A DNA stretch of 64,000 nucleotides, taken from the NCBI RefSeq assembly GCF_000275825.1, contig NZ_JH719942.1, positions 1,060,988-1,124,987 on the forward strand, given 5' to 3'. The notes beneath the pieces are model-generated. The model searched no databases. It had not been told where the DNA came from and was given only the letters and a program-made list of their open reading frames with translations. This stretch comes from Saprospira grandis DSM 2844. Lineage in GTDB: Bacteria; Bacteroidota; Bacteroidia; Chitinophagales; Saprospiraceae. Shown piece after piece: positions 1,453-59,339 of this stretch; position 1 is the first letter of the stretch, and the number at the start of each line of letters is the position of its first letter. The translations under genes were made by a program, and so were the position numbers.

Positions 1453-1500
1453 AAAAAAGCCGCAAAGGAGAAATTCCTTTGCGGCTTTGCTGTTTTTATT
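1453..1500. terminator. bidirectional rho-independent terminator
   Basis: AAAAAA-GCCGCAAAGG-agaaatt-CCTTTGCGGC-TTTgcTGTTTTTATT. It lies between convergent genes. Confidence 0.6.
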
Positions 1501-2026
1501 GGCCAAAAATCTGCGCCCAATAATAGCCCCATTCGCTATCTTCATCGGCAACAAAGCCTGCACCCATAAAGCGGGCGTCGGGGTCCAGCATATTTTTAAG
1601 ATGGCCAGGGCTGTTGTACCAGAGCTCAAAAACGGCGGCGGCTGTGGCGGTGCCCACCGCAATATTTTCGGACATAGGGAAAAGCTCCGTTTGGCAAAAG
1701 GGCTTAATTTTTTCAAAGGTATCGGCTACTTTTTTTAGTTTTCGGCCTTTGCGGTCATAGAGCCCATGTTCAAAATATCCGTCTATTATCATATCTTTGG
1801 CATGATATCTTGCTGCCCAACTGAGTTCCTTAGACCAGCTGAGGGCTGCCAGCCCCCTAGTTTGTCGAAGTTCATTAACGAGTTCTAGCAACTTTTGCTC
1901 CTCACTCTTATTAGAAGAAGCAATGCGTTCATTGCCCTGCGGCAAGCCCTTAAAACTCTGCGCCTCTAGGCGAAGGGCCGCCATAGAGAGCAAAGTCAAT
2001 AGGATGAAGAAGATTTGAAATTGCAT
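1496..2026 (-). CDS. CAP/SCP/PR-1 superfamily secreted protein (YkwD-like)
   Basis: Signal peptide. The motifs ...YHAKDMIIDGYFEH...ENIAVG...ELWYNSPGHLKNML... resemble the CAP domain. Confidence 0.55.
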   Translation of the reverse strand: MQFQIFFILLTLLSMAALRLEAQSFKGLPQGNERIASSNKSEEQKLLELVNELRQTRGLAALSWSKELSWAARYHAKDMIIDGYFEHGLYDRKGRKLKKVADTFEKIKPFCQTELFPMSENIAVGTATAAAVFELWYNSPGHLKNMLDPDARFMGAGFVADEDSEWGYYWAQIFGQ

Positions 2027-2051
2027 TGCGCTAAAAGTTAAAATTGAAATA

Positions 2052-3521
2052 ATGAAACAGCTATTTTGTCTGCTCGTTTTTTTGGGAGCCAGCCTTTTTG
2101 CTGAAAGTTGGGCCCAGACAAATTCTTGTCAAACGGTAGAACTCTATCTTTATGCCAAAGATAACAGCGGCTTGATTGCAGATGCAAATATTCGCCTTTG
2201 GCGGCCTGCCGATAGCCTGAGTTACCGCCTAAAAACCGATTCTCTGGGCCGTTGTCGGGCTTGTTTGCCCTTGGCCAAAAAGGAATATCAGGTCCAAGTT
2301 CGACACAAAATTTTTTCTACTCAAAATTTTTCGCTGCAACTCGACGGAAGCGATAGTACGATCTATAAAAAAATAGGCCTAGACCGACTGCCGGGCTATT
2401 TGCTCGAGCTCAGTATTACCGAGTTTTTGCAGGGCCAAGGCGATAGCCTAGCCGCTGGCGAATATAGCCTAGAGGGCGTCACGATCGAAATCTATAATAA
2501 AACGCAGTATAAACAGGAGCTCCGCCTAGTGGAACATCCCCATCATGAAATTTCTTTTTTGATGGAGCAGGGCAATGAGTACATTTTTATGCTCCGCAAA
2601 CAGGGCTATTATAGCAAGCGTATGCGGGCCAATGTGAATGTTAATGATTGCATTTTGTGCATGGAGGGCTTTGGAGAGCTTACCCCCGGGGTGGCCGAAT
2701 CGCTCACGCAGGACAATAGCATGGGCACTTTGGTCAGCAATGTAAATTTGAAGCCCTTGGCCGTGGGCGAAAAAATGAAGTTGGACAATATTTACTATGA
2801 TTACGGTAGCTCGCAAATTCGGCCCGAAAGCTATGCCACCCTCGACCAATTGGCCGAGATGATGCGCGACAACCCCAATGTGTATATGGAACTTTCGGCC
2901 CATACCGATTGCCGAGGGAGCAAAGCCTTCAATTTGGAGCTTTCGCAGAATCGGGCCAATAATGTGGTCCAATATATTCAAGAACGCCTCCCCAATGGGG
3001 CCGATCGGGTTAAGGCACAGGGCTATGGCGAGTCTAAACCCCTCAATTCTTGTGTCGATGGCATTAGCTGTAGCGAGGAGTTGCACCAACAAAATAGACG
3101 AACCGAGCTGTTGGTCCTCGATGTGGTCGATGATGAAGATTATATCAACCGCCCGCTGGCCTCAATCATGCAAGAAGAGCTGGAGTCCGAGATTTTGGCC
3201 GCCAATAATAGCTCTTACTTTAAAGAAAAGGACCCTAGCCAGCAAAAAGCACAACAAGAACCCAGCATTCCCGGCCCAATTCCCCCAAATTATAGCGGCT
3301 ACAAAATTGAGCTGAGCCGCAGCCAAGAGAGCCCAGCCCTAGACCACCCTATTTTTATGGCCTTTTCAGAGGTCTTTCTAGATATTGACGAGCAGGGATT
3401 TATCAGTTTTATGGTGGGCGATTACCCCGCCGAGGAGGAGGTCAATAAGGCCCTAGACAAATTTCGTTCACGCTTTTCTAAGGCAAAGGCAGTTTATTAC
3501 AAACTGGGAATTCGACAATAA
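2052..3521 (+). CDS. OmpA-family outer membrane/peptidoglycan-associated protein
   Basis: Signal peptide. OmpA C-like region NIYYDYGSSQIRPESYATLDQLAEMM...SAHTDCRGS...NLELSQNRANNVVQYI...NRRTELLVL. Confidence 0.8.
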   Translation: MKQLFCLLVFLGASLFAESWAQTNSCQTVELYLYAKDNSGLIADANIRLWRPADSLSYRLKTDSLGRCRACLPLAKKEYQVQVRHKIFSTQNFSLQLDGSDSTIYKKIGLDRLPGYLLELSITEFLQGQGDSLAAGEYSLEGVTIEIYNKTQYKQELRLVEHPHHEISFLMEQGNEYIFMLRKQGYYSKRMRANVNVNDCILCMEGFGELTPGVAESLTQDNSMGTLVSNVNLKPLAVGEKMKLDNIYYDYGSSQIRPESYATLDQLAEMMRDNPNVYMELSAHTDCRGSKAFNLELSQNRANNVVQYIQERLPNGADRVKAQGYGESKPLNSCVDGISCSEELHQQNRRTELLVLDVVDDEDYINRPLASIMQEELESEILAANNSSYFKEKDPSQQKAQQEPSIPGPIPPNYSGYKIELSRSQESPALDHPIFMAFSEVFLDIDEQGFISFMVGDYPAEEEVNKALDKFRSRFSKAKAVYYKLGIRQ

Positions 3522-3523
3522 TT

Positions 3524-3686
3524 TTTTGGGGCTGCCCCTGCGGCCTGCGGCCTTGGGTCGGGCTATGTCGCAGCTCGCTGTTCGCTCGGCCCTGCGCTTT
3601 TTCGCTACGCTCAAAAAGCTGGGTCTGGCCTGCGGCCACTGCTATCTATCCCTCAGCCTGCGGCCCTTTGGGCCTGCTAGACGCAA
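3524..3686. repeat. GC-rich interspersed repeat (TTTTGGGGCTGCCCC...GCCTGCTAGACGCAA form)
   Basis: Near-identical to 6981-7193 without the internal insertion. Confidence 0.7.
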
Positions 3687-3798
3687 TTGGACCAAAAAAA
3701 GCCGAGCCTGCAGTAGGCAGACTCGACTTCACTTAATAACCCTAAAACCTTAACCTTTGGCCTAAATTGACTTAAGCCTCTGGAAAACCAAAAAACGC

Positions 3799-4245
3799 TT
3801 ACTGAACATGAATGCTGATTTTCTCCTTTTTAGGCTCCTGATTTTTAGGAACCTCTAGTTGGAGAATGCCATTTTCATAGCTAGCAGTAATACTTTCTAA
3901 GTTGTATTTATTAGATAAACGGAGCTTGCGCTCAAAGGTTGTAAAGGCAAACTCTCTTCGTCTAACTTTAACATTTTCAGGCAGTTCCTTAACATTTTTC
4001 TGGGCCGAGATATGTAGCAGGTCCTTCTCTAGCTCCAATTTAAAGTCTTCTTTTTGGAAGCCTGGAGCCGCTAGTTCTAGCAAAAGGCCAGCTTCTGTCT
4101 CAAAAACATTGAGCATAGGTTGCTGATGGCTTTGGTCTTGGCCAAAAAACTGTTGTAGGGGTTCTTGCTTGAGCAGTTGCTCTAGCTCTTTACCAAATTC
4201 ATTGAAGGGGAACCCAAAGAAGTGATTTGCTTTTGCGTTTTTCAT
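3799..4245 (-). CDS. Hsp20/alpha-crystallin family small heat shock protein
   Basis: Alpha-crystallin domain pattern (...FAFTTFERKLRLSNKYNLESITASYENGILQLEVPK...). Confidence 0.85.
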   Translation of the reverse strand: MKNAKANHFFGFPFNEFGKELEQLLKQEPLQQFFGQDQSHQQPMLNVFETEAGLLLELAAPGFQKEDFKLELEKDLLHISAQKNVKELPENVKVRRREFAFTTFERKLRLSNKYNLESITASYENGILQLEVPKNQEPKKEKISIHVQ

Positions 4246-6758: not shown

Positions 6759-6980
6759 AACTATAGTTCTATTGATTAAGCGGAGGGCAAAAAAGAAGAT
6801 AGTGTATTTTTGTTAAAATTTGCAGTTTCTAGATTTGGTTGGCTCGTAAAATAGGGCCATTCATTTTGCTTTAACAAATTTTAATACGCTAGAACGATAT
6901 TTTTAGTTGATTTCTTAGAAAAATTTGGGCCAAATCAATTTTGCCTTAAGCAAAAGTCTTTTTATTTCTTTTTTCATTTT

Positions 6981-7193
6981 TTTTGGGGCTGCCCCGCCCT
7001 TTGGGCGGGTCGGGCTATGTCGCAGCTCGCTATTCGCTCGGCCCTGCGCTTTTTCGCTACGCTCAAAAAGCTGGGTCTGGCCTGCGGCCACTGCTATCTA
7101 TCCCTCAGCCAGATTTAATTGCGCTGCTTTGGCTATAGTTTGCTATGAATTTTTGGCTATGGCCTGCGGCCCTTTGGGCCTGCTAAACGCAAA
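6981..7193. repeat. GC-rich interspersed repeat with a nested ~55-bp insertion (AGATTTAATTGCGCTGCTTTGGCTATAGTTTGCTATGA...)
   Basis: Aligned by eye to 3524-3686 and 18043-18385. Confidence 0.7.
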
Positions 7194-7241: not shown

Positions 7242-7859
7242 TTATTGTACGGCTTCATTGAGGACTTGGAGGCGTTGAGACACTTCTTGTCCAGCCTCAT
7301 TATAGAGGCGAAAAATGTAGTAGCCATCTTCAAAAGTTTTGAGATTGATGGCCTTATAATTATTTCCTGGCGTCAGTTGCATTTTATTTTGGGCCACTAA
7401 TTCTAGGCTTTGGGCCTCATAAATTTCAAAGTCGAGCTCTTGAGCTTCTTGAGCTTTCACGCCAAAAAGGAAATAGCCTTCTTGCACGGGTTCTGGCGAC
7501 ATACTGAGGGTCACGGGCAATTCCTTTTGTTTATTTTCGGCCCCCATCAGGCTAGCGAGCAGCCGTTGGCTAAAGGCGGCATCGCCTGCGCTTCGGTCTG
7601 CGGGAGCTAGAGCCTCGATAGGTTCTTTAAAGAGCTCGGCGGGAATTTGGTCCTCTACTTTACTAATGGGCAGGCTTTCAAATTTTTCTACAACCAAGGT
7701 TTTTACATCTAACCGACCTCTTTGGGCAGACTCGGTAATAATCGTTTCGGTTTTAATGGCAGTAGCAGCACTATCTTCTGCATTTTCGCAGTCACATTGG
7801 CAGCCATAGGCCAAAAAAGCCATTGTGGCAGAAAGGTAAATTGCTTTTTTAAACATCAT
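7242..7859 (-). CDS. small secreted/lipoprotein paralog with T9SS C-terminal sorting-domain-like end (1 of 4)
   Basis: Lipobox. C-terminus ...FEIYEAQSLELVAQNK...GNNYKAINLKTFEDGYYIFRLYNEAGQEV... matches the T9SS CTD pattern. Confidence 0.5.
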   Translation of the reverse strand: MMFKKAIYLSATMAFLAYGCQCDCENAEDSAATAIKTETIITESAQRGRLDVKTLVVEKFESLPISKVEDQIPAELFKEPIEALAPADRSAGDAAFSQRLLASLMGAENKQKELPVTLSMSPEPVQEGYFLFGVKAQEAQELDFEIYEAQSLELVAQNKMQLTPGNNYKAINLKTFEDGYYIFRLYNEAGQEVSQRLQVLNEAVQ

Positions 7860-10478: not shown

Positions 10479-10502
10479 ATGGGCCTAGGGGTATTTCTCT
10501 GG

Positions 10503-10668
10503 ATAAGGCGGCCAAGCCGCCGCAGAGGAGCGCAGCGACTTGGCTGAGGGGCTGTAGCAGGGCCGCCGCAGGCGGCAGACCGAGGCGGCTTGCCGCCGAA
10601 GGGCCGAGCGAACAGCGAGCTGTGCAATGGCCCGACCCGCAGCGAAGCGCAGGGGCAGCCCCAAAAAA
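10503..10668. repeat. GC-rich interspersed repeat (GGGGCAGCCCCAAAA end)
   Basis: gccgccgcagaggagcgcagcgac...gctgtagcagggccgccgcaggcggcagaccgaggcg...gaagggccgagcgaacagcgagctgtgcaatggcccgaccc... Confidence 0.7.
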
Positions 10669-15329: not shown

Positions 15330-15502
15330 GTGGGCAGGCGGCAAAGCCGCCGCAAGCGAGCGAAGCGAAGCGGCTGAGGGGCTGAAGCAGGGCCGCCGCA
15401 GGCGGCAGACCAAAGCGGCGCAGCCGCTGCAGGGCCGAGCAGACCTGCGAGCTGTGCAATGGCCCGACCCAAGGCCGTAGGCCGCAGGGGCAGCCCCAAA
15501 AC
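15330..15502. repeat. GC-rich interspersed repeat
   Basis: Same module set as 10503-10668. Confidence 0.7.
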
Positions 15503-16309: not shown

Positions 16310-17905
16310 TTAGCTGGCTGTTTCTTGCGGTTGTATCCGCTTTAGTTCGGCCAAGGTTTCCCCTTTTCTATCTAGCCCCTGCCAATTCCATTTTATTTCT
16401 TTAAACTGGGCATAATCCTTAAAATCTTCAAAGACATCTAGGATATCGGGGGCAATATATTCTGTTCGGCTAACATCAATAATCAATTGACTTTTAGCGG
16501 GAAGATTAGACAAATATTTTTTTACTGCGCTTTTGTTGAGGAAAGAGAGATCTTCTGAGAGCGTTAGGTAAATCTTATTGCCCTCTTTAGTTTCTACAAA
16601 AGGCAGGCGATAGTTATTGCGTAAAATATAGAAAACGGCCACTGCCATCCCGATCATAATTCCAATGAGCAAATCGCTGAGCAAGATGGCTATAATGGTA
16701 ACCAAAAAGGGCACAAACTGTTTGTAGCCTTGTTGCCACATCTGCTTAAAAACGCTAGGGTTGGCCAATTTATAGCCCACCATTACCAAAATAGCGGCTA
16801 AGCTAGCCAATGGAATCAGGTTGAGCAGAAAGGGAATCGTCAAAACGGCCAAAAGCAGAAAAAGCCCATGCAAAAATGCCGCAGTTTTTGAGCGTCCGCC
16901 CGACTGAATATTGGCCGAAGAGCGCACAATAACTTGGGTTACGGGCAATCCGCCTAGCAAACCGGCCGCAATATTCCCTATGCCCTGCGCCTTGAGCTCC
17001 TGATTGAGGTTGGTGGTCCGTTTGTGTGGGTCCAACTTATCGGTTGCCTCGGCACAAAGCAAAGACTCCATACTCCCCACAATGGCCAAGGTAATCGCCG
17101 TGGTATAAACAGCTGGATTAAAGAGCTCGGCAAAATTGGGAAACTTCATTTCATTAGAAAAAGCCGCCCAAGAATCAAAAATGGGCAGACTGACCAGATG
17201 TTCTGGGGCAATTTCTAATTGCGGAATCCCTTTAAAGCTCAAATTCAGTACGATGCCTGAAAAAACCGCCACCAAAGGCCCTTGAATCCATAAGGCCCAA
17301 GGCTGCTTTTTAATCATCTCTTGTTGCCAAATAATGAGAATGATAAAGGCGACCAAAGCCGCTACGGCAGGTCCCCAGTTTACATTCAGCCCCTCAAAAA
17401 CATCCGTAAAGGCCTTAAAAATTTCACTAAAAGTGGTCTCTCCATCGGGCTGAAGATAAGCCATCTCCCCCTCGGGGTCCTTATCGTCGCCTAGTGCATG
17501 CGGAATTTGCTTGAGGATAATGATCAAACCAATTCCCGATAGCATGCCTTTAATCACTGCTGCAGGAAAAAAATACCCAATGCCGCCAGCCTTAAAAAAA
17601 CCTAATAACAACTGCAAAAGGCCAGAAATGACCACGGCTAGCAAAAAGGTCTCAAAACTGCCCAATTGCTCAATTGCTGCAATGACAATAGCCACCAAAC
17701 CCGCAGCCGGGCCGCTAACACCTAGAGATGAATTGGAAAAAAGCGTAACCACTACGCCACCCACAATGCCGGCAATAATGCCCGACAAAAGAGAGGTGCC
17801 TGAGGCCAGGGCAATACCTAGACATAGAGGAACCGCTACCAAAAAAACGACAATTGCCGCAGGTAGATCGTTCTTCCAGTGCTTGAAAGTAAGGGGAGCT
17901 TTCAT
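16310..17905 (-). CDS. SulP family anion transporter with C-terminal STAS domain
   Basis: About 10-12 TM helices in the SulP pattern. The cytoplasmic C-terminal ~130 aa are STAS-like. Confidence 0.85.
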   Translation of the reverse strand: MKAPLTFKHWKNDLPAAIVVFLVAVPLCLGIALASGTSLLSGIIAGIVGGVVVTLFSNSSLGVSGPAAGLVAIVIAAIEQLGSFETFLLAVVISGLLQLLLGFFKAGGIGYFFPAAVIKGMLSGIGLIIILKQIPHALGDDKDPEGEMAYLQPDGETTFSEIFKAFTDVFEGLNVNWGPAVAALVAFIILIIWQQEMIKKQPWALWIQGPLVAVFSGIVLNLSFKGIPQLEIAPEHLVSLPIFDSWAAFSNEMKFPNFAELFNPAVYTTAITLAIVGSMESLLCAEATDKLDPHKRTTNLNQELKAQGIGNIAAGLLGGLPVTQVIVRSSANIQSGGRSKTAAFLHGLFLLLAVLTIPFLLNLIPLASLAAILVMVGYKLANPSVFKQMWQQGYKQFVPFLVTIIAILLSDLLIGIMIGMAVAVFYILRNNYRLPFVETKEGNKIYLTLSEDLSFLNKSAVKKYLSNLPAKSQLIIDVSRTEYIAPDILDVFEDFKDYAQFKEIKWNWQGLDRKGETLAELKRIQPQETAS

Positions 17906-18042
17906 AAACTAAAATAGAATGTAGAACACATTTAAGGACTAAGCCAACTGTGCTCAAGGGTAAATAATAGTAATACTATCAAGCACAAAGGTAATTAACT
18001 TAAATTAGTTAGTTTTCCTTTTTTTTTATTTTTTTATTGATT

Positions 18043-18385
18043 TTTTGGGGCTGCCCCTTCGCTTCGCTCGGGTCGGGCTGTGTCAGGGCTCGCAGGTCTG
18101 CTCGGCCCTGCGCAAAATTTCGCTAGGCTCATTTTGCTAGGTCTGCGGCTTCGCCGCCCCCTTTTCCATCCCTCAGCCAGATTTAATTGCGCTGCTTTGG
18201 CTATAGTTTGCTATGATTTTTTTGGCTAGACCAGCTATTTTTTAAGGGCATAGCCTTCGCTATAGCCGAGAAAAATAGGGCCGACTAGCGGAAAATTGCT
18301 GCAAACTATAAAAGTGAGTGCATTTAAATTTGGCTATGGCCTGCGGCCCTTTGGGCCTGCTAGACCTAAAAAAGGCCCAAAACCT
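18043..18385. repeat. GC-rich interspersed repeat carrying a two-level nested insertion
   Basis: It starts like the 3524 copy, then carries the AGATTTAATTGCGCTGCTTTGGCTATAG... insert. That insert is interrupted by a further ~105 bp flanked by TTTGGCTA direct repeats. It ends cctgcggccctttgggcctgctagac. Confidence 0.6.
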
Positions 18386-18422
18386 TAGGGTTTTGGGCCT
18401 TTAGGGCCGGAGCGCTTTCTCT

Positions 18423-18902
18423 TTATTCTTCTTTTAGGCTAAAGCTCCCCATAAAAGCTTCTATTTCTTTTGGGCCAACTTCTTGGGGTTGCCTGTTCAC
18501 AATCAGCAGTTGATAGACCTTATTGTCTTTGCGGTAGAGCTCGTAGACGGCGGCGGCATCAAAGCCGAGCAGCCTATAGCGTTTAGACTTTTTGGGCCAG
18601 GGGCCTTCTTCTCTTTGGATGCTTAGGGGTTGGAGGCGGATAGCGGCGCCTAGGAGCAGGGCTTCAAAGAGGCTATCGTTGGCAAGGGCTTGTTGGTCTT
18701 TGTTTAGTGGCATACAGGCCGCCTGATACTCCCAGATAGAATCGGGACTTTTATAGAAATAGGCTTCTATTCCATTTTGTTCTAGGCTATCGAAGGGGGC
18801 GGGAAACTGCAGGCTATAATGGCCCAATTTGGAGTGGACCTTTTGGCCCTTTTGGCAGGCAAAGAGGCTAAGCAGCAGGGTTAAAAAGATAAAAACTCTC
18901 AT
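18423..18902 (-). CDS. hypothetical lipoprotein
   Basis: MRVFIFLTLLLSLFACQ lipobox. Confidence 0.4.
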   Translation of the reverse strand: MRVFIFLTLLLSLFACQKGQKVHSKLGHYSLQFPAPFDSLEQNGIEAYFYKSPDSIWEYQAACMPLNKDQQALANDSLFEALLLGAAIRLQPLSIQREEGPWPKKSKRYRLLGFDAAAVYELYRKDNKVYQLLIVNRQPQEVGPKEIEAFMGSFSLKEE

Positions 18903-18934
18903 GATTGATTTTGGGCCAAAAGTACGTTTTTTTT

Positions 18935-19105
18935 GGGAGAGATTGGAGGCGGCGAAGCCGCCCCGGCCGCAGGCCGAATGGCCCAGCGCTGCGGAGGGGT
19001 GGCCGAAGGCCAGACCGAGCCGCCTTGGCGGCGAAGGGCCGAACAGCCTTGTGAGCCCCGCAGCATAGCGGCGGCCGCCCCAAAATGAAGGGCGGCCGCG
19101 GGCCC
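18935..19105. repeat. GC-rich interspersed repeat
   Basis: ggcggcgaagccgcc...gcagcatagcggcggccgccccaaaa. Confidence 0.6.
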
Positions 19106-19978
19106 CTAAAAAATACTTTGATTTGTGAGTCGGAGGGCAGCACGGAGTGCATTGAGCATATTTCCATGCGTTTGAATTTCTTGAATATCGAGACCAATAT
19201 CGACAATAGTTTGGGCCACATTGCCAGAAATGCCAGAGAGCATTGCTTGGCAGCCCATCAGTTTGGCGGCCTTGCTCATTTTGATCAGGGCATTGGCCAC
19301 CTCGCTATCCATAACGGCGATACCGCGAATATCGAGAATAAAGACCTTGGCGTTTTTTTCAGCAATGGCCTCGAGCATAGCGTGCATCACCTGTTGGGCG
19401 CGTTCGCTATCTAGAAAGCCCACCAAAGGCAGCAGCAGAATGCCTTCCCAAAGCGGGGTAATGGGTGTAGACATAGAGGAAAGCGTTTCCTCTTTTTCTC
19501 GGAGCAATTCATCTTTGGCCGAGCTATAGCCATCGGTGAGGGTAGAGACCGCAATGCCCGTAAACTTTCGGTAAGTTTTGAGTAGATTCAGGCTGAGCAG
19601 GCCTTGTTGTTCTAGTAGATCTTGGACCTCTTGATGGTAATAATTGAGGAATGCCAGGTAGGCATCGAAGGGGATGCCCACGCTGGCGAAGACCTGTCCA
19701 AAAAAGCGTTGGCGTTCGATATACTCATCATCGGCTTGGCCGGAGAGCAAATCATCCCAGAAAATGTCTTCACTATCTCGGATTGCCTGCAAGACATCTT
19801 CGGTATAATAGCTTAGGAAGAAAGGGTGATTTTGCAGCCAATCATAGAAGCGTTGATAGAGTGCATCTTTTTGATCATAAATTTTTTGGCCTGCTTGGGC
19901 AAGTTCTGTTAGCTCTTCATCTTGGAGAAAAAAGAGTGCTTGATAGTAGGGCCAATTTTTTTCGTTAGGATCAATCAT
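19106..19978 (-). CDS. RsbR-like protein with an N-terminal helical sensor-like domain and a C-terminal STAS domain
   Basis: The C-terminal ~110 aa (VFILDIRGIAVMDSEVANALIKMSKAAKLMGCQAMLSGISGNVAQTIVDIGLD...) look like STAS. Confidence 0.6.
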   Translation of the reverse strand: MIDPNEKNWPYYQALFFLQDEELTELAQAGQKIYDQKDALYQRFYDWLQNHPFFLSYYTEDVLQAIRDSEDIFWDDLLSGQADDEYIERQRFFGQVFASVGIPFDAYLAFLNYYHQEVQDLLEQQGLLSLNLLKTYRKFTGIAVSTLTDGYSSAKDELLREKEETLSSMSTPITPLWEGILLLPLVGFLDSERAQQVMHAMLEAIAEKNAKVFILDIRGIAVMDSEVANALIKMSKAAKLMGCQAMLSGISGNVAQTIVDIGLDIQEIQTHGNMLNALRAALRLTNQSIF

Positions 19979-19984
19979 CTGTAC

Positions 19985-20968
19985 TTAATAATTTTGGATA
20001 TGCAAGAGGACCAGGGTTTGGTTGAGCAGGATGTAGCCTACTTCACCAAAGGTAAAGGGTCCTTCATAATTGCCTAGCTGTTCGCCATCTAATTTAAAGT
20101 TCAGATAATTCACGATACAATTGCAGGCTGTAATGGCGGGGGAATTGGGCATTTCTTTACGGAAAGCCTGGGGATTATAATCTACTGTTTTGGCCAAATG
20201 ATAGACTTGGTCTGTAGAAACGGGGGCATAAAAATAGACTATTTTTTCCTCTACTCGTTGGATAGTGGTGTTAATCAGGGCTCCGGAATAGTTGGAAATC
20301 AGGGGTAGGCTTCCGTCTATGCCCTTCCTTTTACAATAATGTGCAAAATTTTGTTTTTCGCCATTGATCAGGGCTTCGCTGGCTTGAAAATCGGTAGTTA
20401 AGAACTGAATATCGTCATCTTGGCCTTCTTCGTAGGGATTATAGATTTCGATTTCGGCATACTGTGCTGCGGGCAATTCGACATGCATAAGGACCGCTCG
20501 GTTCTTCATTTTTTCTGCTTTTGGGCCATAATAGGCAGCGGGCAGATGGCTGGGGTCGGCTTCTAGTTGTCGGCCAGTGATCCAGCCTAGAATGGGTTGG
20601 TCGTAGAGTCTATCATATTGGCCAATATCTAGGGCATAGGCCTTATGCACTTCTGAAAAAGCGGGCAGTGCAATATAGCTAAAGCCATTTTCTGGGCGAT
20701 CGTCCAGTAGTTGTTCCAGTTCTTGGGCCGAGTAGCTTTTGATTTCGGCTTTTAGGGCCAGATCGCTCAGATTAGAGACAAAAAGGCGGTTAAGATCTTT
20801 TTGCGCTCCTTCTCGGCTCATGAAGTAGGGCGTACTTCCGCCCAGCCATTGGCCGGCGGGCAGTTGGTCTAGTAAGCGTTGGCTACCTGCGATCAGCAGT
20901 ATTTGGCCAGATTCAATTAGTGCTTGGGTTTCTTTTAGGGAGAGGAGTTGATTTTGAAGCTTAGCCAT
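19985..20968 (-). CDS. uncharacterized cytoplasmic protein, tandem paralog 3 of 3
   Basis: 327 aa. About 75% identical to paralog 2 over long runs (LPAGQWLGG..PYFMS, FVSNLS.LALKAEIKSYSAQE). Confidence 0.6.
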   Translation of the reverse strand: MAKLQNQLLSLKETQALIESGQILLIAGSQRLLDQLPAGQWLGGSTPYFMSREGAQKDLNRLFVSNLSDLALKAEIKSYSAQELEQLLDDRPENGFSYIALPAFSEVHKAYALDIGQYDRLYDQPILGWITGRQLEADPSHLPAAYYGPKAEKMKNRAVLMHVELPAAQYAEIEIYNPYEEGQDDDIQFLTTDFQASEALINGEKQNFAHYCKRKGIDGSLPLISNYSGALINTTIQRVEEKIVYFYAPVSTDQVYHLAKTVDYNPQAFRKEMPNSPAITACNCIVNYLNFKLDGEQLGNYEGPFTFGEVGYILLNQTLVLLHIQNY

Positions 20969-21071
20969 ATTGTTCTATTGTTAAGTTAGAAAATGGCCTA
21001 TTGTGTTTATTGCTTAATTTTGCTCAAGGAACAAAGTTCTTCAAAAAGATAGTGGGTTAGTGTAATCGTTT

Positions 21072-22049
21072 TTACTTATCCTGAATATAGAGCAGGACCA
21101 GCGTTTGGTTGAGTAAAAGGTAGGCAATTTCGCCAAAGGTAAATGGCCCGCCATAGTTGGCCAGCTTTACGCCATTCAATTGAAAATTGAAATAGATAGA
21201 AATGCAATTAAAGGCTGTTTGGGCGTTTTCATGGGGCATTTTATCTAAGAACGCATTAGGGCTATACCTAATTTCCTTGGCCCAATAATAAATTTGGTCG
21301 GTAGATACTGGGCCATAAAAATAGACTCGATTTTCTTCAATCCGTTCAATATCGATATTGACCAAAGCGCCAGAGTAATTAGCGAGCAGGGGGAGTTGGC
21401 CCTTAATGTTGTTGCTACGGCAATAGTGGGCAAAATTTTGTTTTTCGCCATTGATGAGGACCTCTGCGGCGGAGAAGTCATTTTCTAAGAACTCGATACG
21501 GTCGCCTTGGCCTTGTTCGTAGGGATTATAGATTTCGATTTCGGCATATTGGCTTTCGGGCAGTTCAATGTGCATCAATACGGCCTTATTGCTTAGGCAA
21601 CTAGCTGTTGGGCCATGATAAACGGCTGGAAACTGTTCATCTTTGGCCTCTAGGTCTTTTCCAGTAACCCAACCTAAAATTGGAGAGTCGTAGAGGCTTT
21701 CATATTGTCCAATTTCTATAGCATAGGCTTTATGGACCTCAGAAAAAACGGGCATAGCGATATAGCTAAAGCCATTTTTGGGCCGATCGGCCAGTAGTTG
21801 CTCAAACTCTTGGGCCGAATAGCTTTTAATTTCAGCTTTTAGGGCCAGATTGCTCAGGTTGGAGACAAAAAGATGGTCGAGATCTTTTTCTGCGCCGGCT
21901 TCACTCATAAAGTACGGAATAGTTCCCCCTAGCCATTGGCCTGCGGGCAACTGATCGAGTAATTCTTGGCTAGCGGCAATCAGCAAGAGCTCTCCGGCTT
22001 GAATGAGGCGGCAGGTTTCTTCTAAGGTTAATATTTGGTTGTTCGGCAT
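21072..22049 (-). CDS. uncharacterized cytoplasmic protein, tandem paralog 2 of 3
   Basis: 325 aa, the same family. Confidence 0.6.
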   Translation of the reverse strand: MPNNQILTLEETCRLIQAGELLLIAASQELLDQLPAGQWLGGTIPYFMSEAGAEKDLDHLFVSNLSNLALKAEIKSYSAQEFEQLLADRPKNGFSYIAMPVFSEVHKAYAIEIGQYESLYDSPILGWVTGKDLEAKDEQFPAVYHGPTASCLSNKAVLMHIELPESQYAEIEIYNPYEQGQGDRIEFLENDFSAAEVLINGEKQNFAHYCRSNNIKGQLPLLANYSGALVNIDIERIEENRVYFYGPVSTDQIYYWAKEIRYSPNAFLDKMPHENAQTAFNCISIYFNFQLNGVKLANYGGPFTFGEIAYLLLNQTLVLLYIQDK

Positions 22050-22086
22050 GAGCCATTTTGTTAGCGGTTAAGATATGTATGGCCAA

Positions 22087-23070
22087 CTATTCTGTTTTAA
22101 CATCTAGAATAACCATAGTTTGGTTCAGGACCAGATAGGCGATTTCGCCAAAAGTGAAGGGGTAATGGTAGCCTTTGGTGTAGTTTTCTTCTCCGCCCAA
22201 TTGCATAAAGTTAGCGATACAATTGTAGGCGACTAAGGTCGTTTCGGTTTTTGGGGGCAGTTTGGCCTTAAAAGCGGCTTGTCGATTTTCTATAGTTTTG
22301 GCAAAGCGGTACGTTTGGCTTTGAAAAACGGGAGCAGCAAAACTGACAGTTGTGGCAGCTTCTTCGGCCTGATAGATAGAGGTATTGAGTTGGGCACCGC
22401 CAAAATCTCCGACCAAGGGGTATTCCATATCAATTTGATGTTCTTGCAGATAGCTCAGAAAGTTTTGTTTTTCGCCATCAATCAAACAGTCCTCTACCTG
22501 ATAGCCATCTTCTAGGAATTGGATATTGGGGCCATCATTTTGTTCATAAATATTCACAATAGAGAGCTCTGCATATTGCTCTGCAGCAAGTTGGGCGTGC
22601 AGGGCCACAAGTTGGTCCGTATAGACCGCTCCATCTTGGCCATTCACCACTAGTGGTTGAGCGGCCTCGCCCCAAACAATACCTGTGACCCAACCTAGGG
22701 TAGGCACATCAAATAGCTTTGGGTTTTGGCTAATTTGCAAGGCATAATTGGCCTGTACTTCCTGAAAAGCGGGCATAAGTAAATAGCTAAAGCCATTTTC
22801 TGGACGATCGTCCAGCATTTGCTCCAATTCTTGAGCGCCATAGGCCTGAATGCTAAAATCTTGAATTTCAGTAGTCAGATCTGTCACAAAAACCTGCTCT
22901 CGGTTCAAAGCACCGCCCTCTTCAGTCATAAAGTAGGGAATGCTGCCGCCGATCCAGTTGCCTTTGGGCAAAGTTTTCAAAATTGGTCCATCTGCGGCAA
23001 CAACTAAGGTTCGGCCTTGCTCAATCCATTCTGCACAGGTTTTTTGGGAAATCAGTTGGTTTTTATTCAT
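22087..23070 (-). CDS. uncharacterized cytoplasmic protein, tandem paralog 1 of 3 (most divergent)
   Basis: 327 aa with shared motifs (LP.G.W.GG.IPYFM, GFSY...PAF.EV...YAL, GEKQNF..Y, PFTFGE..YL.LNQT.V.L). Confidence 0.55.
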   Translation of the reverse strand: MNKNQLISQKTCAEWIEQGRTLVVAADGPILKTLPKGNWIGGSIPYFMTEEGGALNREQVFVTDLTTEIQDFSIQAYGAQELEQMLDDRPENGFSYLLMPAFQEVQANYALQISQNPKLFDVPTLGWVTGIVWGEAAQPLVVNGQDGAVYTDQLVALHAQLAAEQYAELSIVNIYEQNDGPNIQFLEDGYQVEDCLIDGEKQNFLSYLQEHQIDMEYPLVGDFGGAQLNTSIYQAEEAATTVSFAAPVFQSQTYRFAKTIENRQAAFKAKLPPKTETTLVAYNCIANFMQLGGEENYTKGYHYPFTFGEIAYLVLNQTMVILDVKTE

Positions 23071-23085
23071 GGGGGAAGGGAGGCT

Positions 23086-23307
23086 TTAACGTTTAAAAAT
23101 GGCTTTTAGGTCGGCCGCATACATCTTTTCATTTTTGGCACAATAGGCCCAAAGCTGTTGCCTAGCTTCATTTAAGCTTAATTTTCCTTTGCGGAGCTGT
23201 ACCTTGAGGCTATTCAGTTTTAGCTGTAGCGACAAGCTTTTTAACTTGGGCTTAATGCGCTCTTCTAAGAGGGCTGCCCATTCTTCTTCTTGAGGATCTG
23301 CTAGCAT
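23086..23307 (-). CDS. small coiled-coil protein, first gene of the paralog/STAS operon
   Basis: 73 aa. Its stop is 15 bp before paralog 1. Confidence 0.4.
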   Translation of the reverse strand: MLADPQEEEWAALLEERIKPKLKSLSLQLKLNSLKVQLRKGKLSLNEARQQLWAYCAKNEKMYAADLKAIFKR

Positions 23308-23379
23308 AAAGTTTCTGATTTAGTTGTTTCTCTCTACAATTTAATAAAAAAAGGCTTCTTTAGGAAGCCTTTTTTATTC

Positions 23380-24096
23380 TTAGTCTAGTGGTTCACACTG
23401 CGGTCGCATTTTGTCAATTGTACTTTTTGCCAAATCATTAACGCCTTCTAGTTCGCCTTCTTCGGCTTTCCAGAAAGTAGCACAGGTCTTTAAGGGACTA
23501 TCACAAAGCATTTTAGATTGTAGTTTCCCCGTGCTATCTTGGGCATATAGCCAGAGCTCGCAATGCTCATAATTTCCCAGATAAGTCCCTTTGGCTTTGG
23601 GTTGGCCATTCTGATAAAATTCTGCAAAAGGCCCATTAGCCTCATTATTGCGCATAACCACCCATTCTTTGATCTGCCCATTGGGGTAGTAGGTTTTCAG
23701 GCTATCATCTAAGGCGCCCTCCTTATAATGGCCGGCCTGTTTTAGTTGGCCATTGGGGTAATAATAGCTCAGCGGACCATCTAGTTGTCCTTTTTCATTG
23801 TACTGAAAATGGCCAGCCAATTGCCCATTTTGGTGATATTGTTTTTCTTCTCCAACGCTTAGGCCCGCCTTCATTTTGCGCTCCAAAAGCAATATTTTTT
23901 GGCCTTCTTGCAGGCTATACTCCTTATACTCGCCTTCTTTTTGCTGATTGATGGTATCAAATTGGTATTCCATCAATAAATCGGCCTGCTGTTCTGTTTT
24001 CCAGATTTTTGGATCTTCATTTTTTGGAGCCTGCTCCTCGCCTTGGCAAGCCATAAGAAGAAGAAAACTGCCTGCGGTTATTATTTTTTTGATCAT
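23380..24096 (-). CDS. MORN-repeat (YwqK-like) lipoprotein
   Basis: Repeated G-x-Y--NGQLK/NGQPK units and an LLLMACQ lipobox. Confidence 0.55.
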   Translation of the reverse strand: MIKKIITAGSFLLLMACQGEEQAPKNEDPKIWKTEQQADLLMEYQFDTINQQKEGEYKEYSLQEGQKILLLERKMKAGLSVGEEKQYHQNGQLAGHFQYNEKGQLDGPLSYYYPNGQLKQAGHYKEGALDDSLKTYYPNGQIKEWVVMRNNEANGPFAEFYQNGQPKAKGTYLGNYEHCELWLYAQDSTGKLQSKMLCDSPLKTCATFWKAEEGELEGVNDLAKSTIDKMRPQCEPLD

Positions 24097-24111
24097 GCTA
24101 ATTAAGATTTT

Positions 24112-24252
24112 TATTTTTTGGGGCCTGCCGCCTTTGGCGGCCGGGCTGTGTCAGGGCTCGCAGGTCTGCTCGGCCCTGCAGGCTTTTTCGCTTCGCTTCA
24201 AAAGCCTTTGGTCTGCGGCTGCGCCGCCCCCTTATCCATCCCTAGGCCAATT
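24112..24252. repeat. GC-rich interspersed repeat
   Basis: ttttggggcctgccgcc...gggctgtgtcagggctcgcaggtctgctcggccctgc... Confidence 0.65.
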
Positions 24253-24342
24253 GAGGCTTAATTGATTGGGCTAAAATAAGCAAGTTGTTTTTCTAGAAAA
24301 GGACATTTCTGCAAAAAGTTACGTTCTTTAAAAATCGGGCGC

Positions 24343-24371
24343 TTGACAAAATAGTTGTATCTTTAGATACT
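24343..24371 (+). promoter_or_regulatory. candidate sigma70-like promoter (TTGACA-17-GATACT)
   Basis: Sequence match only, about 60 bp upstream of the 24431 start. A TATTTTTG (Bacteroidetes TAnnTTTG-like) element also sits at ~24377. Confidence 0.3.
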
Positions 24372-24430
24372 CCCTTATTTTTGGTACTCATTCAATTCAC
24401 AAATTAGTTATTCCCCAACCCTTTTGTCCT

Positions 24431-24937
24431 ATGAAAATTTACGCTTTTTTTTTGGCCATTTTGGCCATTAGTCTTGTTTCTTGCCAGTCTGCCCCCAAAT
24501 CTTCAGTTACTGATGAGCTGGCTAGTTTTCCTAAAAAAGAATTTGCCAAAGTAGTAGCTTATGATTATGAAAGCATGCAAGGCGACTATATTTTGAATAA
24601 AAACGGGGAGTTACACCCTTCTGTTAAGGCTGAAAAAGAACTGACGGAGGAGCAGCAAAAGCTTTTGCTGGCCACATTGAATAGTAAAAACAGTTATGGT
24701 GGCTCGGTCACTCGTTGTTTTTATCCTCGTTTGGGTTTTGTTTTCTACAATGCTGCTGATGAGCCGGTGGGCCAAGTAAGTATTTGTTTTCAGTGCAATC
24801 AGCAGGTGGCTGGGCCGCAGATTCCGGTACAAGAGGCCTTATTGGCCGAGGGCGAACTGATTGGTTATAGTGCATTGGGCCGAGAGAAGTTATTGGAGCT
24901 TTGCCAAAGTTTGGGGTTTAGCAATTGTAATGAATAG
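24431..24937 (+). CDS. hypothetical lipoprotein
   Basis: Signal peptide/lipobox LVSCQS. Cys pairs CFYP...CFQCNQ. Confidence 0.45.
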   Translation: MKIYAFFLAILAISLVSCQSAPKSSVTDELASFPKKEFAKVVAYDYESMQGDYILNKNGELHPSVKAEKELTEEQQKLLLATLNSKNSYGGSVTRCFYPRLGFVFYNAADEPVGQVSICFQCNQQVAGPQIPVQEALLAEGELIGYSALGREKLLELCQSLGFSNCNE

Positions 24938-24992: not shown

Positions 24993-25015
24993 GGTCCAAT
25001 TTTCTGCGTTTTACA

Positions 25016-25185
25016 GGCGGCGAAGCCGCCGCAAAGGAGCGCAGCGACGCGGCTGAGGGGCTGTAGCAGGGCCGCCGCAGGCGGCAGACCGAGGCGCGCT
25101 AGCGCCGAAGGGCCGAGCAGACCTGCGAGCTGTGCAATGGCCCGACCCAAGGCCCAAAGGGCCGCAGGGGCAGCCCCAAAATAGC
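25016..25185. repeat. GC-rich interspersed repeat
   Basis: Same module set as 10503-10668 and 15330-15502. Confidence 0.7.
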
Positions 25186-33053: not shown

Positions 33054-33109
33054 ATCTCTCCCTCAGAAACCCAAAGAGCAATGGATAACTATTTCTGTTG
33101 CTCTTTTTT

Positions 33110-33283
33110 TGTTTTGGGGCCTCCGCCTCGCTTCGCTCGTCGGCGCTACGCTTTGGGGCTCGCTATTCGCTCGGCCCTGCGCAGGCTCCGCCTGCTTGGT
33201 CTGGCCTGCGGCCACCCCGCCGCATCGCTAGGCCTGCGGCCCTTCGGGCCTGTAGATCGCAAAACACCAAACCTTTGGACCAA
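33110..33283. repeat. GC-rich interspersed repeat
   Basis: ttttggggcctccgcctcgcttcgctcg...tgcgcaggctccgcctgcttggtctggcctgcggccacc... Confidence 0.6.
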
Positions 33284-34199: not shown

Positions 34200-35185
34200 T
34201 GCAAAGCGCTTATTATTGTTGATTACGACAAAAACAAAAAAAGGCTTTGCAACATGGTTGTGAATTTATCAAAAGAATTTATTACGGAAAAAATATTAGC
34301 ATTTTTTCCCGAAAAAAAATTGGCTCGAAAAACCAAAGCGCCTCTGTGGCAAATTGTTAAAGCGATAATTTATAGGCTTAAAACAGGTTGTCAGTGGAGA
34401 GAATTACCGATACAATCTTTTTTTGACGAAGTTCTAATTTGCTGGCAAACAGTATATTACTACTTCAATAGCTGGTCCGAGTCTGGTATTTGGCAAAAAG
34501 TGTGGATCCAATTTCTAGCCCATGAAAAATCTTGTTTAGATTTATCTAGTATACAGCTTGACGGAAGTCATACCCCAGCGAAAAGAGGGGGCGAAGCTGT
34601 GGGTTATCAGGGCCGAAAAAAGTCCAAAACCACAAATGCTCTCTTTCTCACAGATAAAAATGGGCTGCCAATCGCTATGTCTCCGCCTTTTGCGGGAAAC
34701 CATAATGATTTGTTTGAAATCGAGAGTCATTTCCAAAAAATGCTTGCCGATCTGCAGCTTTCAGACATCTCTCCTGATGGTTTATTTATGAATGCTGATG
34801 CAGGGTTTGATAGCAAAAAACTTAGAGAAAACTGCCAAAAAATGGGCATTATCCCTAATATTGACCACAACAAAAGAAATAGAAAAAAAGCTTATTATCA
34901 AGATATTATAGATGAGGAACTTTACAAAGAACGCTTTTCTGTTGAGCGAACTAACGCATGGATTGACGCATTCAAAATTTTACTCATTCGTTTTGAAAGA
35001 AAAGCCGACAACTGGGCGAGTCTACACTATTTAGCCTTTATACTTATTTTCCTAAAACGAAATTTTTAAACAAACTCTTAAATGTAAAGGCGGGTGAATG
35101 CCATCAAATTTAAAAAATTGTTTGGAAAAGGCGCAGTCAAAACGATTTTATAATTTAGATTTTCTTAATAACGCCTTTATTTATT
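34200..35185 (+). mobile_element. IS5-family insertion sequence (approximate ends)
   Basis: A single DDE transposase ORF with imperfect terminal inverted repeats (AAAGCGCTTATTATTG / CAATAAATAAAGGCGTTATT). It sits inside the injection-system locus. Confidence 0.45.
34254..35069 (+). CDS. IS5-family DDE transposase (DUF4096 N-terminus)
   Basis: N-terminus ...WQIVKAIIYRLKTGCQWRELP... is typical of IS5/IS1182-type transposases. Confidence 0.7.
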   Translation: MVVNLSKEFITEKILAFFPEKKLARKTKAPLWQIVKAIIYRLKTGCQWRELPIQSFFDEVLICWQTVYYYFNSWSESGIWQKVWIQFLAHEKSCLDLSSIQLDGSHTPAKRGGEAVGYQGRKKSKTTNALFLTDKNGLPIAMSPPFAGNHNDLFEIESHFQKMLADLQLSDISPDGLFMNADAGFDSKKLRENCQKMGIIPNIDHNKRNRKKAYYQDIIDEELYKERFSVERTNAWIDAFKILLIRFERKADNWASLHYLAFILIFLKRNF

Positions 35186-35191: not shown

Positions 35192-35395
35192 TGGGCTTTG
35201 GCGAGGCGGCGCAGCCGCCTGCGAGCGCAGCGAGCCATGGCCCAGCGCTGCGGAGTGGGTGGCCGTAGGCCAGACCGAGTTTTTTGAGCGCAGCGAAAAA
35301 AACGAAGGGCCGAGCAGGCTTGCGAGCCCCGCAGCATAGCGGCGGCCGCCCCTACTAAAAAGGGCGGCCGCGGGCCCCAAAAAATGGATCTTATA
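35192..35395. repeat. GC-rich interspersed repeat
   Basis: ggcgaggcggcgcagccgcc...gcagcatagcggcggccgcccc...aagggcggccgcgggccccaaaaaa. Confidence 0.6.
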
Positions 35396-39769: not shown

Positions 39770-39905
39770 AGCGGGCAGTTGCATTGGCCTAGCGCTGCGG
39801 AAGGGTGGCCGTCAGGCCAGACCGAAGCCCGCAGGGCTGAAGGGCCGAGCAGACTTGCGAGCCCTGTAGCATAGCGCCGCAGCTTTGCTGCGGAGGCCCC
39901 AAAAA
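39770..39905. repeat. GC-rich interspersed repeat lodged between the PAAR and gp25 genes
   Basis: gcctagcgctgcggaagggtggccgtcaggccagaccgaagcc...gaagggccgagcagacttgcgagccctgtagcatagcgccgcag...ggaggccccaaaaa. Confidence 0.6.
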
Positions 39906-42287: not shown

Positions 42288-42321
42288 AAGCTGTATATTT
42301 TTTTGCTGTTTTTAAGCAGGT

Positions 42322-42472
42322 TTTTTGGGGGCCTGCGGGCTTCGCCCGCCGCTATGTTGCAGGGCTCGCAAGCCTGCTCGGCCCTTCGCAAAATTTCGCT
42401 ACGCTCATTTTGCTTGGTCTGGCCCTACGGGCCACCCTTCCACAGCGCTAGGCCAAAAACGGCTTCGCTTAA
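42322..42472. repeat. GC-rich interspersed repeat inside the contractile cluster
   Basis: ttttgggggcctgcgggcttcgcccgccgctatgttgcagggctcgcaagcctgctcggccc... Confidence 0.6.
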
Positions 42473-47339: not shown

Positions 47340-47482
47340 AGCCCAACTACAGCCGCCCCATTTGGCCTAGCGATGTGCAGGGGGGGCCGCAGGCCAGACC
47401 GAGCAGGCAAAGCCTGCGCAGGGCCGAGCGAACAGCGAGCCCCGAAACGTAGCGCCTGCCGAAGGCAGGAGGCCCCAAACCT
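47340..47482. repeat. GC-rich interspersed repeat inside the contractile cluster
   Basis: gcctagcgatgtgcagggggggccgcaggccagaccgagcagg...gccgagcgaacagcgagccccgaaacgtagcgcctgccgaaggcaggaggccccaaa. Confidence 0.6.
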
Positions 47483-48308: not shown

Positions 48309-48357
48309 GCTCTATTTTTGTTAGCCTCGATATCGTACAAGGTTGTTTTTGATTTTT

Positions 48358-48530
48358 ATTTTTTGGGGCTGCCCCTCCTTTCAGTCGGGTCGGGCTGTGT
48401 CGCAGCTCGCAGGTCTGCTCGGCCCTGCGCTTTTTTCGCTTCGCTCAAAAAGCTGGGTCTGGCCTTCGGCCACTGCTATCCATCCCTCAGCCTGCGGCGG
48501 CTTTGCCGCCTGCTCGCCGCAAAAGGACCT
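48358..48530. repeat. GC-rich interspersed repeat
   Basis: Same architecture as 3524-3686, with ...cctgcggcggctttgccgcctgctcgccgc substituted. Confidence 0.65.
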
Positions 48531-59268: not shown

Positions 59269-59339
59269 AAGGGCGTTTTTATCCCTTTTCTTTTTTGTAG
59301 CTTGGGAGCAGCAGTTTACTGTTGCTCCCTTTTTTTATT

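Follow-up and report, generated by a model that had tools for sequence, protein, structure and literature searches.

What the RsbR paralogs of the stressosome sense, and how they do so, is a live question of stressosome biology, and recent work doubts that these paralogs sense stress directly (PMC11821858). Globin-type RsbR proteins are described from Vibrio vulnificus and Vibrio brasiliensis (7o0i; PMC9237108, PMC4976288), where a globin is joined to a STAS domain, a proximal His is present, and rsbS-rsbT-rsbX follow. In Bacillus subtilis, RsbRA-RD and YtvA constitute a set of several RsbR paralogs with conserved STAS domains, divergent N-domains and a non-heme globin (PMC9765535, PMC11821858). 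A further point of comparison is NosP, a standalone FIST protein and heme-based sensor of NO, which binds and modulates a partner histidine kinase, NosK (PMC12570481). In this work, we analyze a window, namely the whole stretch of 64,000 nucleotides (nt) from positions 1,060,988 to 1,124,987 of contig NZ_JH719942.1 of Saprospira grandis DSM 2844, which holds a five-gene operon encoding a small helical protein, three proteins of the family DUF6976 and an RsbR paralog. RsbR proteins and stressosomes are already known, and DUF6976 is catalogued but uncharacterized. Some B. subtilis RsbR paralogs are encoded away from the rsbRST core, and to our knowledge none of them is operonic with a dedicated auxiliary sensor protein.

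The operon runs on the minus strand from 23307 to 19106, with intergenic gaps of 15, 37, 103 and 6 nt. An earlier note on this DNA, made from the sequence alone, had claimed five co-directional genes spaced 6-103 bp apart, and the open reading frames (ORFs) indeed lie where it placed them:

23086-23307, minus strand: small helical protein of 73 aa, belonging to no Pfam or NCBIfam family
22087-23070, minus strand: DUF6976 paralog 1, 327 aa (Pfam PF22396, E 3.8e-116)
21072-22049, minus strand: DUF6976 paralog 2, 325 aa, SapgrDRAFT_0890 (Pfam PF22396, E 2.4e-114)
19985-20968, minus strand: DUF6976 paralog 3, 327 aa, SapgrDRAFT_0889 (100% identical), the copy modeled with AlphaFold2 (AF2)
19106-19978, minus strand: RsbR paralog (globin and STAS), 290 aa, with Pfam Protoglobin and STAS domains and a match to 7o0i_B

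We propose, and give about an even chance, that this operon provides a stressosome RsbR paralog with an accessory FIST-like sensing branch; the contacts between the proteins, the signal and the way in which it flows are what we infer.

The last gene was described in the earlier note as encoding an RsbR-like protein with a C-terminal STAS domain after a helical sensor-like N-domain, and profile searches agree with both parts of that description. Pfam STAS (PF01740) scores 51 bits against a cutoff of 22.6 and Pfam Protoglobin 58.6 bits against a cutoff of 25, while the protein matches the V. vulnificus RsbR (VvRsbR) 7o0i_B with E 7.5e-56 over residues 18-286 and the Listeria RsbR 7b0u_A with E 3.3e-27 over residues 148-289. 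Judged by its sequence, it is a true RsbR paralog of the globin-STAS type, in which the following features are located:

residues ~7-130, nt 19589-19960, minus strand: Protoglobin-type sensor globin, followed by a linker helix
Phe97, nt 19688-19690, minus strand: residue at the position of the heme proximal (F8) His
residues ~178-264, nt 19187-19447, minus strand: STAS domain
Ser191, nt 19406-19408, minus strand: phospho-acceptor position, equivalent to VvRsbR Ser199
Ser225, nt 19304-19306, minus strand: phospho-acceptor position, equivalent to VvRsbR Thr233

The two equivalences derive from the VvRsbR phospho-sites Ser199 and Thr233 (PMC9237108). Ser191 lies inside an invariant Asp-Ser-x-Arg motif, and the position of Ser225 is occupied by Thr in all other aligned homologs. 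In alignments, the residue opposite Phe97 is His both in VvRsbR (GEIHARVG) and in the Geobacter globin-coupled sensor (GCS) 2w31, a difference which the earlier note had no means to notice. The proximal His is required for heme binding, and is conserved in the Vibrio clade and absent from the Bacillus non-heme clade (PMC4976288). Since Phe97 replaces this His, heme or O2 sensing by the globin of the RsbR paralog has probably been lost. The distal Tyr45 is kept and is invariant in 18 of 18 aligned homologs; in the same alignment, Phe stands at F8 in every homolog of at least 40% identity, and His in all the more distant ones. Thus, the operon RsbR resembles the Vibrio proteins in its globin-STAS layout, its distal Tyr and both phospho-acceptor positions, but differs from them in Phe97, in the small and DUF6976 genes which precede it, and in the presence of a canonical, His-type copy elsewhere. 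Its identity to this canonical S. grandis RsbR is 38% overall, 57% in the STAS domain and 23% in the globin, which fits the paralog pattern known from B. subtilis. S. grandis shares with that species the several RsbR paralogs, the conserved STAS domains, the divergent N-domains and a non-heme globin; unlike the B. subtilis paralogs, the one in Saprospira has three FIST-like proteins and their partner immediately upstream.

The coupling of DUF6976 to RsbR is found in other genomes. When loci were sampled from the DUF6976 side, a STAS gene lay within 10 kb in none of 82; this sample did not cover the Saprospira-related clade, and the conclusion that no DUF6976 locus carries a STAS gene was dropped after a search from the RsbR side had found a conserved triad. 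This triad of small gene, DUF6976 and globin/STAS gene occurs at L092, L087 and L093 (proteins P0123, P0124 and P0125), with RsbR proteins 50-53% identical to that of the operon and unrelated flanking genes, and the arrangement is kept in Saprospira relatives. Another homolog (P0134, 41% identical) belongs to a canonical STAS-RsbR-RsbS-kinase-PP2C cluster. The link of DUF6976 to RsbR anticorrelates with RsbS/RsbT. Among 92 classifiable RsbR genes, drawn from a metagenome scan and the loci already collected, and with denominators that count loci with enough flanking sequence, the neighbors are as follows:

His-type RsbR (n = 80): RsbS downstream in 48/50, RsbT downstream in 47/50, DUF6976 and small gene upstream in 0/39
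Phe-type RsbR (n = 10): no real RsbS downstream, RsbT downstream in 0/9, DUF6976 and small gene upstream in 7/10
Leu-type RsbR (n = 2): no RsbS, no RsbT, no DUF6976 and small gene

The STAS link of DUF6976 is confined to the Saprospira-related clade and is conserved there. An RsbS flagged beside the Phe-type RsbR at L097 was rejected as a false positive arising from tandem RsbR paralogs. As a separate observation, this Saprospira-like metagenomic contig carries three tandem globin-STAS RsbR paralogs of 294, 286 and 296 aa (1454-4141), and L098, also Saprospira-like, carries a further, Leu-type paralog; the number of RsbR paralogs in Saprospira-like genomes is apparently six or more.

The three tandem paralogs, whose family the earlier note had left unidentified, are all full-length members of Pfam PF22396 (DUF6976), with E-values from 2.4e-114 to 7e-119 and, for paralogs 1-3, scores of 388, 382 and 397 bits over profile positions 2-320/321, against a gathering cutoff of 27 bits. 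Their description as tandem copies is borne out by these end-to-end matches and by DNA-level direct repeats (families D1, D11 and D16) which connect the three genes. Paralogs 2 and 3 are 67% identical, less than the approximately 75% estimated before, and paralog 1 was rightly called much more divergent, as it is 41% identical to each of the others; the motifs put forward as common to all three are exact in paralogs 2 and 3, while paralog 1 has the variants GNW, NFLSY and LVLNQTMVIL. We found no mention of DUF6976 in the literature, NCBIfam has no model for the paralogs, and the Pfam entry assigns no function; to this entry the present work adds the fold, partner, kinase fusions and RsbR link. 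The family is large: at least 584 matches were confirmed in species-representative genomes, and those listed include Proteobacteria, Bacteroidota, Spirochaetota, Bacillota, Myxococcota, Acidobacteriota, Chloroflexota and others, while a hidden Markov model (HMM) scan of 1.84 billion representatives yielded at least 774 clusters at 50% identity. Conservation amounts to ~40% identity across phyla, with 26 invariant positions. Multiple copies were found only in Saprospiraceae, with two to three in Aureispira and three in Saprospira. In a neighbor-joining (NJ) tree, all Saprospira copies form one group (78% bootstrap) consisting of three orthogroups, which are older than the sampled Saprospira species.

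Upstream of the paralogs lies the 73-aa protein, which was earlier taken for a small coiled-coil protein; it is indeed small, and its predicted structure is helical at low confidence, which is as far as the coiled-coil part goes. It has no Pfam or NCBIfam match. BLAST placed homologs directly upstream of DUF6976 in 14 loci, and an iterated HMM search raised this to 81 of 82 loci in many phyla, the small gene lying mostly within ~25 nt of the DUF6976 gene or overlapping it by 4 nt. In addition, 20 of the 150 best representatives (e.g., P0053) are in-frame fusions in which the small domain stands N-terminal to DUF6976, and in P0220 such a fusion runs on into PAS-HATPase_c. The small protein is a near-universal, obligate partner of DUF6976, and, because of this adjacency and these natural fusions, the conserved core is a two-gene, sometimes one-gene, unit, which the earlier note had missed. 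A check of how the neighborhood is distributed, which the earlier note had proposed, thus returns this unit at nearly every locus and the triad with RsbR only in the Saprospira-related clade. In Aureispira, the small gene precedes four of five DUF6976 copies, whereas Saprospira has one small gene before three copies. In one Saprospira lineage (L083-L085; e.g., L084 1127-1598), paralog 1 has decayed to ~500 bp of fragments with the small gene upstream intact, which suggests that the small protein is also a partner of paralogs 2 and 3.

The partner takes a different form in 26 beta- and gammaproteobacterial loci, where it is 240-640 aa long, with an ISL3-type zinc-ribbon/helix-turn-helix (HTH) N-domain common to all 26 and the small domain at its extreme C-terminus; in L080, HTH_Tnp_ISL3 is matched at E 2e-8, above the gathering score. 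Seven of these 26 loci continue with CheW, methyl-accepting chemotaxis protein (MCP), histidine kinase or REC genes. It was also observed that in some gammaproteobacteria (L080 8145-14241, L069, L013, L031 and L036-L038) the partner reaches 500-640 aa and consists of the ISL3-like zinc-ribbon/HTH part, a long linker and the small domain; REC, CheW, MCP and kinase genes lie downstream of it and DUF6976, in what is a distinct variant of the module with a link to chemotaxis.

The AF2 model of paralog 3 is two-lobed and confident (predicted local distance difference test, pLDDT, 95.2; predicted template modeling score, pTM, 0.91). In a Foldseek search of the PDB, its sole strong neighbor is the FIST domain of human FBXO22, matched in three entries (8ua3, 8ua6 and 8s7e) with probabilities of 0.95-0.99 and a TM score of ~0.4. 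FBXO22 is a eukaryotic E3-ligase substrate receptor, the substrate-binding part of which is named the FIST domain (PMC12407915); it is 10-11% identical to DUF6976, and at this TM score its lobes are arranged differently. Sequence-level membership of the FIST family was not found. FIST_N gave no match at E <= 10 in 57 DUF6976 members, and FIST_C (PF10442) matched seven of the 57, with a best E of 4.5e-4 and every score under the gathering score of 28.5 bits; in P0108, for instance, the match reaches 13.1 bits and aligns residues 217-309 with profile positions 23-130 of 131. A profile alignment of DUF6976 by hhalign with an FBXO22 sequence which equals that of the PDB chain had a probability of 0.2, i.e., no profile similarity; the DUF6976 profile against PDB sequences returned nothing meaningful, and phmmer against the PDB returned nothing. 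Because the Foldseek match is strong but FIST_N is absent, FIST_C is sub-threshold and hhalign is negative, we use only the label FIST-like: according to the predicted model, DUF6976 is FIST-like in fold and not a member of the Pfam FIST family. The suggestion in the earlier note of a FIST-type sensor agrees with this in the predicted fold, and not as a family assignment. DUF6976 and the NosP/NosK systems are alike in that a cytoplasmic protein of ~330-400 aa, consisting of one domain of FIST-type fold, is encoded beside a signaling protein without a working sensor of its own (PMC12570481). They differ in that DUF6976, with no FIST_N and a weak FIST_C, is not a NosP family member, in that a small helical protein always accompanies it, of which that source makes no mention, and in that its neighbor in Saprospira is an RsbR-type STAS protein, whereas that of NosP is a kinase.

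Domain architectures and neighbors show DUF6976 in use as an input domain of signal transduction. Proteins with C-terminal extensions number ~10 among the 150 best representatives; in seven of these ten, DUF6976 is followed by (PAS-)HisKA/HATPase_c(-REC) kinase modules, while two have PAS domains only and one has TPR repeats. Of the 82 standalone loci, 23 have a gene for a REC-containing protein close by, 12 have one for an MCP and 7 have one for CheW. Signaling genes lie within 3 kb at 25 of the 82, compared with 7 of 44 equally sized distant control windows; for MCP and CheW the comparison is 7-12 of 82 loci against 0 of 44. DUF6976 is thus probably a sensor (input) domain.

No RsbT-like kinase, RsbS or PP2C was detectable by phmmer in the 64-kb window with canonical genes from L090 as queries, in line with what the earlier note had said of a kinase and a phosphatase; for sigma factors, no specific search was made. 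Its idea of a non-canonical partner switch lacking a kinase is probably wrong, as a full STAS-RsbR-RsbS-RsbT-PP2C-PP2C/kinase cluster exists elsewhere in S. grandis. Three contigs (L097, L098 and L136) are Saprospira-like by a Saprospira-specific repeat motif, and L136 has the gene order STAS110-RsbR(His)-RsbS-RsbT-PP2C. In an exact-sequence cluster look-up, its RsbT clusters with SGRA_3212 of strain Lewin and SapgrDRAFT_0478 of DSM 2844, its RsbS with SapgrDRAFT_0479 of DSM 2844 (EJF52223; the same sequence has the Lewin accession AFC25939), and its 110-aa STAS protein with EJF52225 of DSM 2844. Two complete S. grandis genomes (Lewin and CP110854) contain the full cluster, in the order GerE, GerE, STAS, RsbR (291 aa), RsbS (119), RsbT (132), PP2C (200), PP2C+HATPase_c_2 (542), further genes and, last, SulP. 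The locus tags of the core (0478-0481) and of the operon (0889/0890) put a distance of ~410 genes between the two. With a full RsbRST cluster elsewhere in the species, the operon STAS protein looks like an additional RsbR paralog of the canonical stressosome.

On our reading, the three DUF6976 proteins would be cytoplasmic FIST-like sensors. Invariant residues (Trp, His, Asn-Cys, Thr-Phe-Gly-Glu and Asn-Gln-Thr) probably line a pocket in which each of them binds a cofactor or small molecule, and they would act jointly with the 73-aa helical partner in a ligand-sensing complex. In the Saprospira-related clade, this presumed sensor pair would have become coupled genetically to an RsbR paralog which lacks the heme-ligating His and keeps the STAS domain and the phospho-acceptor serines. 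The complex of DUF6976 and small protein would dock on the RsbR paralog, whose divergent, heme-less globin is the most likely site, and relay its ligand state much as, by analogy, NosP modulates its partner kinase. Through its STAS domain, the RsbR paralog would then join RsbS and RsbT, the genes of which lie at the distant locus beside those for the PP2C and PP2C-kinase outputs. Triplication of DUF6976 would permit three ligand specificities or sensitivities. A broader proposal, which we hold tentatively and at somewhat less than an even chance, is that DUF6976 and its ~70-aa partner are a widespread plug-in cytoplasmic sensor pair, wired to the ISL3-type HTH protein, to histidine kinases, to chemotaxis clusters and to an RsbR paralog, which in the Saprospira-related clade has replaced heme-based sensing by the RsbR globin.

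Several observations, besides the negative FIST results given above, weigh against the accessory branch. AF2 modeling of the natural fusion P0053 had a pLDDT of 34-72 in the small domain, at a pTM of 0.77, and was uninformative on docking. No signaling gene lies within 3 kb at 57 of the 82 standalone DUF6976 loci. The Phe-type set holds redundant contigs, so that the linked loci represent ~5 independent lineages, and some Phe-type RsbRs, namely those of L088/L089 and the L097 tandem paralogs, have no adjacent DUF6976. In the NJ tree, the STAS-linked single-copy DUF6976 genes fall outside the Saprospira group, and a single origin of the RsbR link is therefore not shown by the tree. Finally, rsbT of DSM 2844 is collinear with that of Lewin for 62 codons and then diverges to a stop, giving a product of 64 aa (SapgrDRAFT_0478) in place of 132 aa. 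The breakpoint sequence (L179 3091-3301) is identical to the terminal sequence GTTTGTTTAAAAATTTCGTTTTAGGA (35050-35075) of an insertion sequence (IS) of the IS4/IS5 family, which is present in the window at 34200-35080 with its transposase ORF at 34254-35069 on the plus strand (DUF4096 and DDE_Tnp_1); on this ground, rsbT is probably IS-disrupted in DSM 2844. In this strain, the operon is intact, while the output of the stressosome may no longer function.

The last point bears directly on an alternative which we consider unlikely, namely that small protein, DUF6976 and globin-STAS protein form a self-contained module independent of RsbS/RsbT, with the STAS protein as an output adaptor for, e.g., another target or a transporter. 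An operon left intact despite a disrupted rsbT speaks for such a module, as do the triad traveling as a unit among differing genomic contexts, the failure of RsbS/RsbT to adjoin any Phe-type RsbR (0/9) and the SulP permease two genes downstream. B. subtilis RsbR paralogs encoded away from the core nevertheless still join the stressosome, and the STAS domain of the operon protein is still 57% identical to that of the canonical S. grandis RsbR, with Ser or Thr at both RsbT phospho-acceptor positions throughout the clade, including the invariant Asp-Ser-x-Arg; this is the pattern expected of paralogs which still enter the RsbS/RsbT complex, and it speaks against a self-contained module.

The role of DUF6976 itself might also be read differently. 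That it is mainly an enzyme acting on a small metabolite, with the RsbR paralog regulating the enzyme or responding to its product, is improbable in our estimation, given that a FIST domain, which is non-enzymatic, is by a wide margin its closest structural match, that it is recurrently fused to PAS/HisKA/HATPase_c/REC modules and linked to a DNA-binding partner, that CheW and MCP neighbors are enriched around it as described, and that no metabolic operon context recurs. Least credible, and in our view very improbable, is an incidental gene order or a selfish two-gene cassette, similar to toxin-antitoxin or defense systems, which landed beside an orphan RsbR. Such a cassette would account for the frequent 4-nt overlap of the small upstream gene with the larger one, for the patchy distribution over many phyla with variable neighbors, and for the proteobacterial partner with its N-terminal DNA-binding domain, as in many antitoxins; yet PADLOC models of anti-phage defense and toxin-antitoxin systems matched none of the five operon proteins at E <= 0.01, and fusions of the small domain with DUF6976, as well as histidine kinase fusions, do not fit a toxin-antitoxin pair. 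Moreover, the triad is kept at 50% RsbR identity in differing contexts and correlates perfectly with the loss of RsbS/T adjacency and of the heme His.

An RsbR paralog without a cofactor ligand, encoded behind a FIST-like sensor pair, offers a concrete and testable hypothesis on the question of what RsbR paralogs sense: an auxiliary sensor signaling into the RsbR N-domain. If true, this would be, as far as we have found, the first stressosome input to be set by an auxiliary ligand sensor that is both dedicated and genetically linked; no literature joining the stressosome with FIST was found. The elements which appear to be new are the FIST-like fold, the obligate small partner, the kinase and HTH architectures, and the clade-wide coupling to a probably heme-less RsbR paralog instead of RsbS/RsbT adjacency. 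Fold, partner, use as kinase input and the proteobacterial DNA-binding variant together provide a first functional frame for DUF6976. The two-gene core is also present in genetically tractable genera such as Marinobacter and Bdellovibrio, which opens a way to study the ligand outside Saprospira.

The operon is flanked by a terminator-like hairpin on its 5' side and by a GC-rich repeat element on its 3' side, and the features around it are:

23380-24096, minus strand: MORN-repeat lipoprotein gene, upstream of the operon and beyond the hairpin
23347-23375, no strand: symmetric hairpin which resembles a terminator in either direction, with an A-run and a T-run on the two sides of its 13-bp stem
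18940-19100, no strand: copy of a GC-rich intergenic repeat (repeat families D8, D15, I21 and I25)
16310-17905, minus strand: SulP-family permease, two genes downstream of the operon's RsbR paralog

In a scan for terminator-like structures, the hairpin had the longest stem of the region, and it marks the 5' boundary of the operon; the repeat copy directly after the STAS gene marks the 3' boundary and is outside the signaling module. A sigma-70 promoter scan of the region gave only scores at the level of shuffled sequence, with a scan model not made for Bacteroidota promoters. Rfam matches in 17900-24450 were at chance level and far below gathering scores, and the scan thus gives no riboswitch clue to the ligand. 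Behind the canonical RsbRST cluster there is likewise a SulP permease (749 aa; L176 10528-12777; L177 10487-12736), different from the first. STAS domains are carried by SulP transporters, and the proximity of SulP at both loci could be either coincidence or a functional link.

The GC-rich repeat belongs to a modular intergenic family, the core motifs of which, TTTTGGGGCTGCCCC, GGGCCGAGCAGACCTGCGAGC and GGTCTGGCCTGCGGCCAC, occur 11, 14 and 8 times, respectively, per 64 kb with at most two mismatches. Example sites in the window are:

first half: 3504-3690, 6961-7130, 10500-10650, 15330-15500, 18023-18180, 18940-19100, 24094-24250, 25010-25155
second half: 33090-33265, 35228-35350, 39775-39905, 42300-42455, 47363-47480, 48341-48510, 53899-54460, 59326-59890

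The family may be REP/MITE-like or may act as a terminator. A 21-nt motif starting GGGCCGAGCAG was found only in Saprospira-like contigs among ~180 fetched loci, and is therefore usable as a lineage marker. A pair of 294-nt inverted repeats, 93% complementary, stands at 54064-54357 and 59450-59743 with ~5.1 kb between; these are composed at least partly of the same GC-rich modules, and could bracket a mobile or invertible segment.

Four tandem small ORFs also lie in the window:

7242-7859, minus strand: 205 aa
7957-8499, minus strand: 180 aa
8664-9206, minus strand: 180 aa
9449-9991, minus strand: 180 aa

Three of the four weakly match Por_Secre_tail, the C-terminal sorting domain of type IX secretion, and from their sequences the group looks like a further local paralog expansion, here of small secreted proteins.

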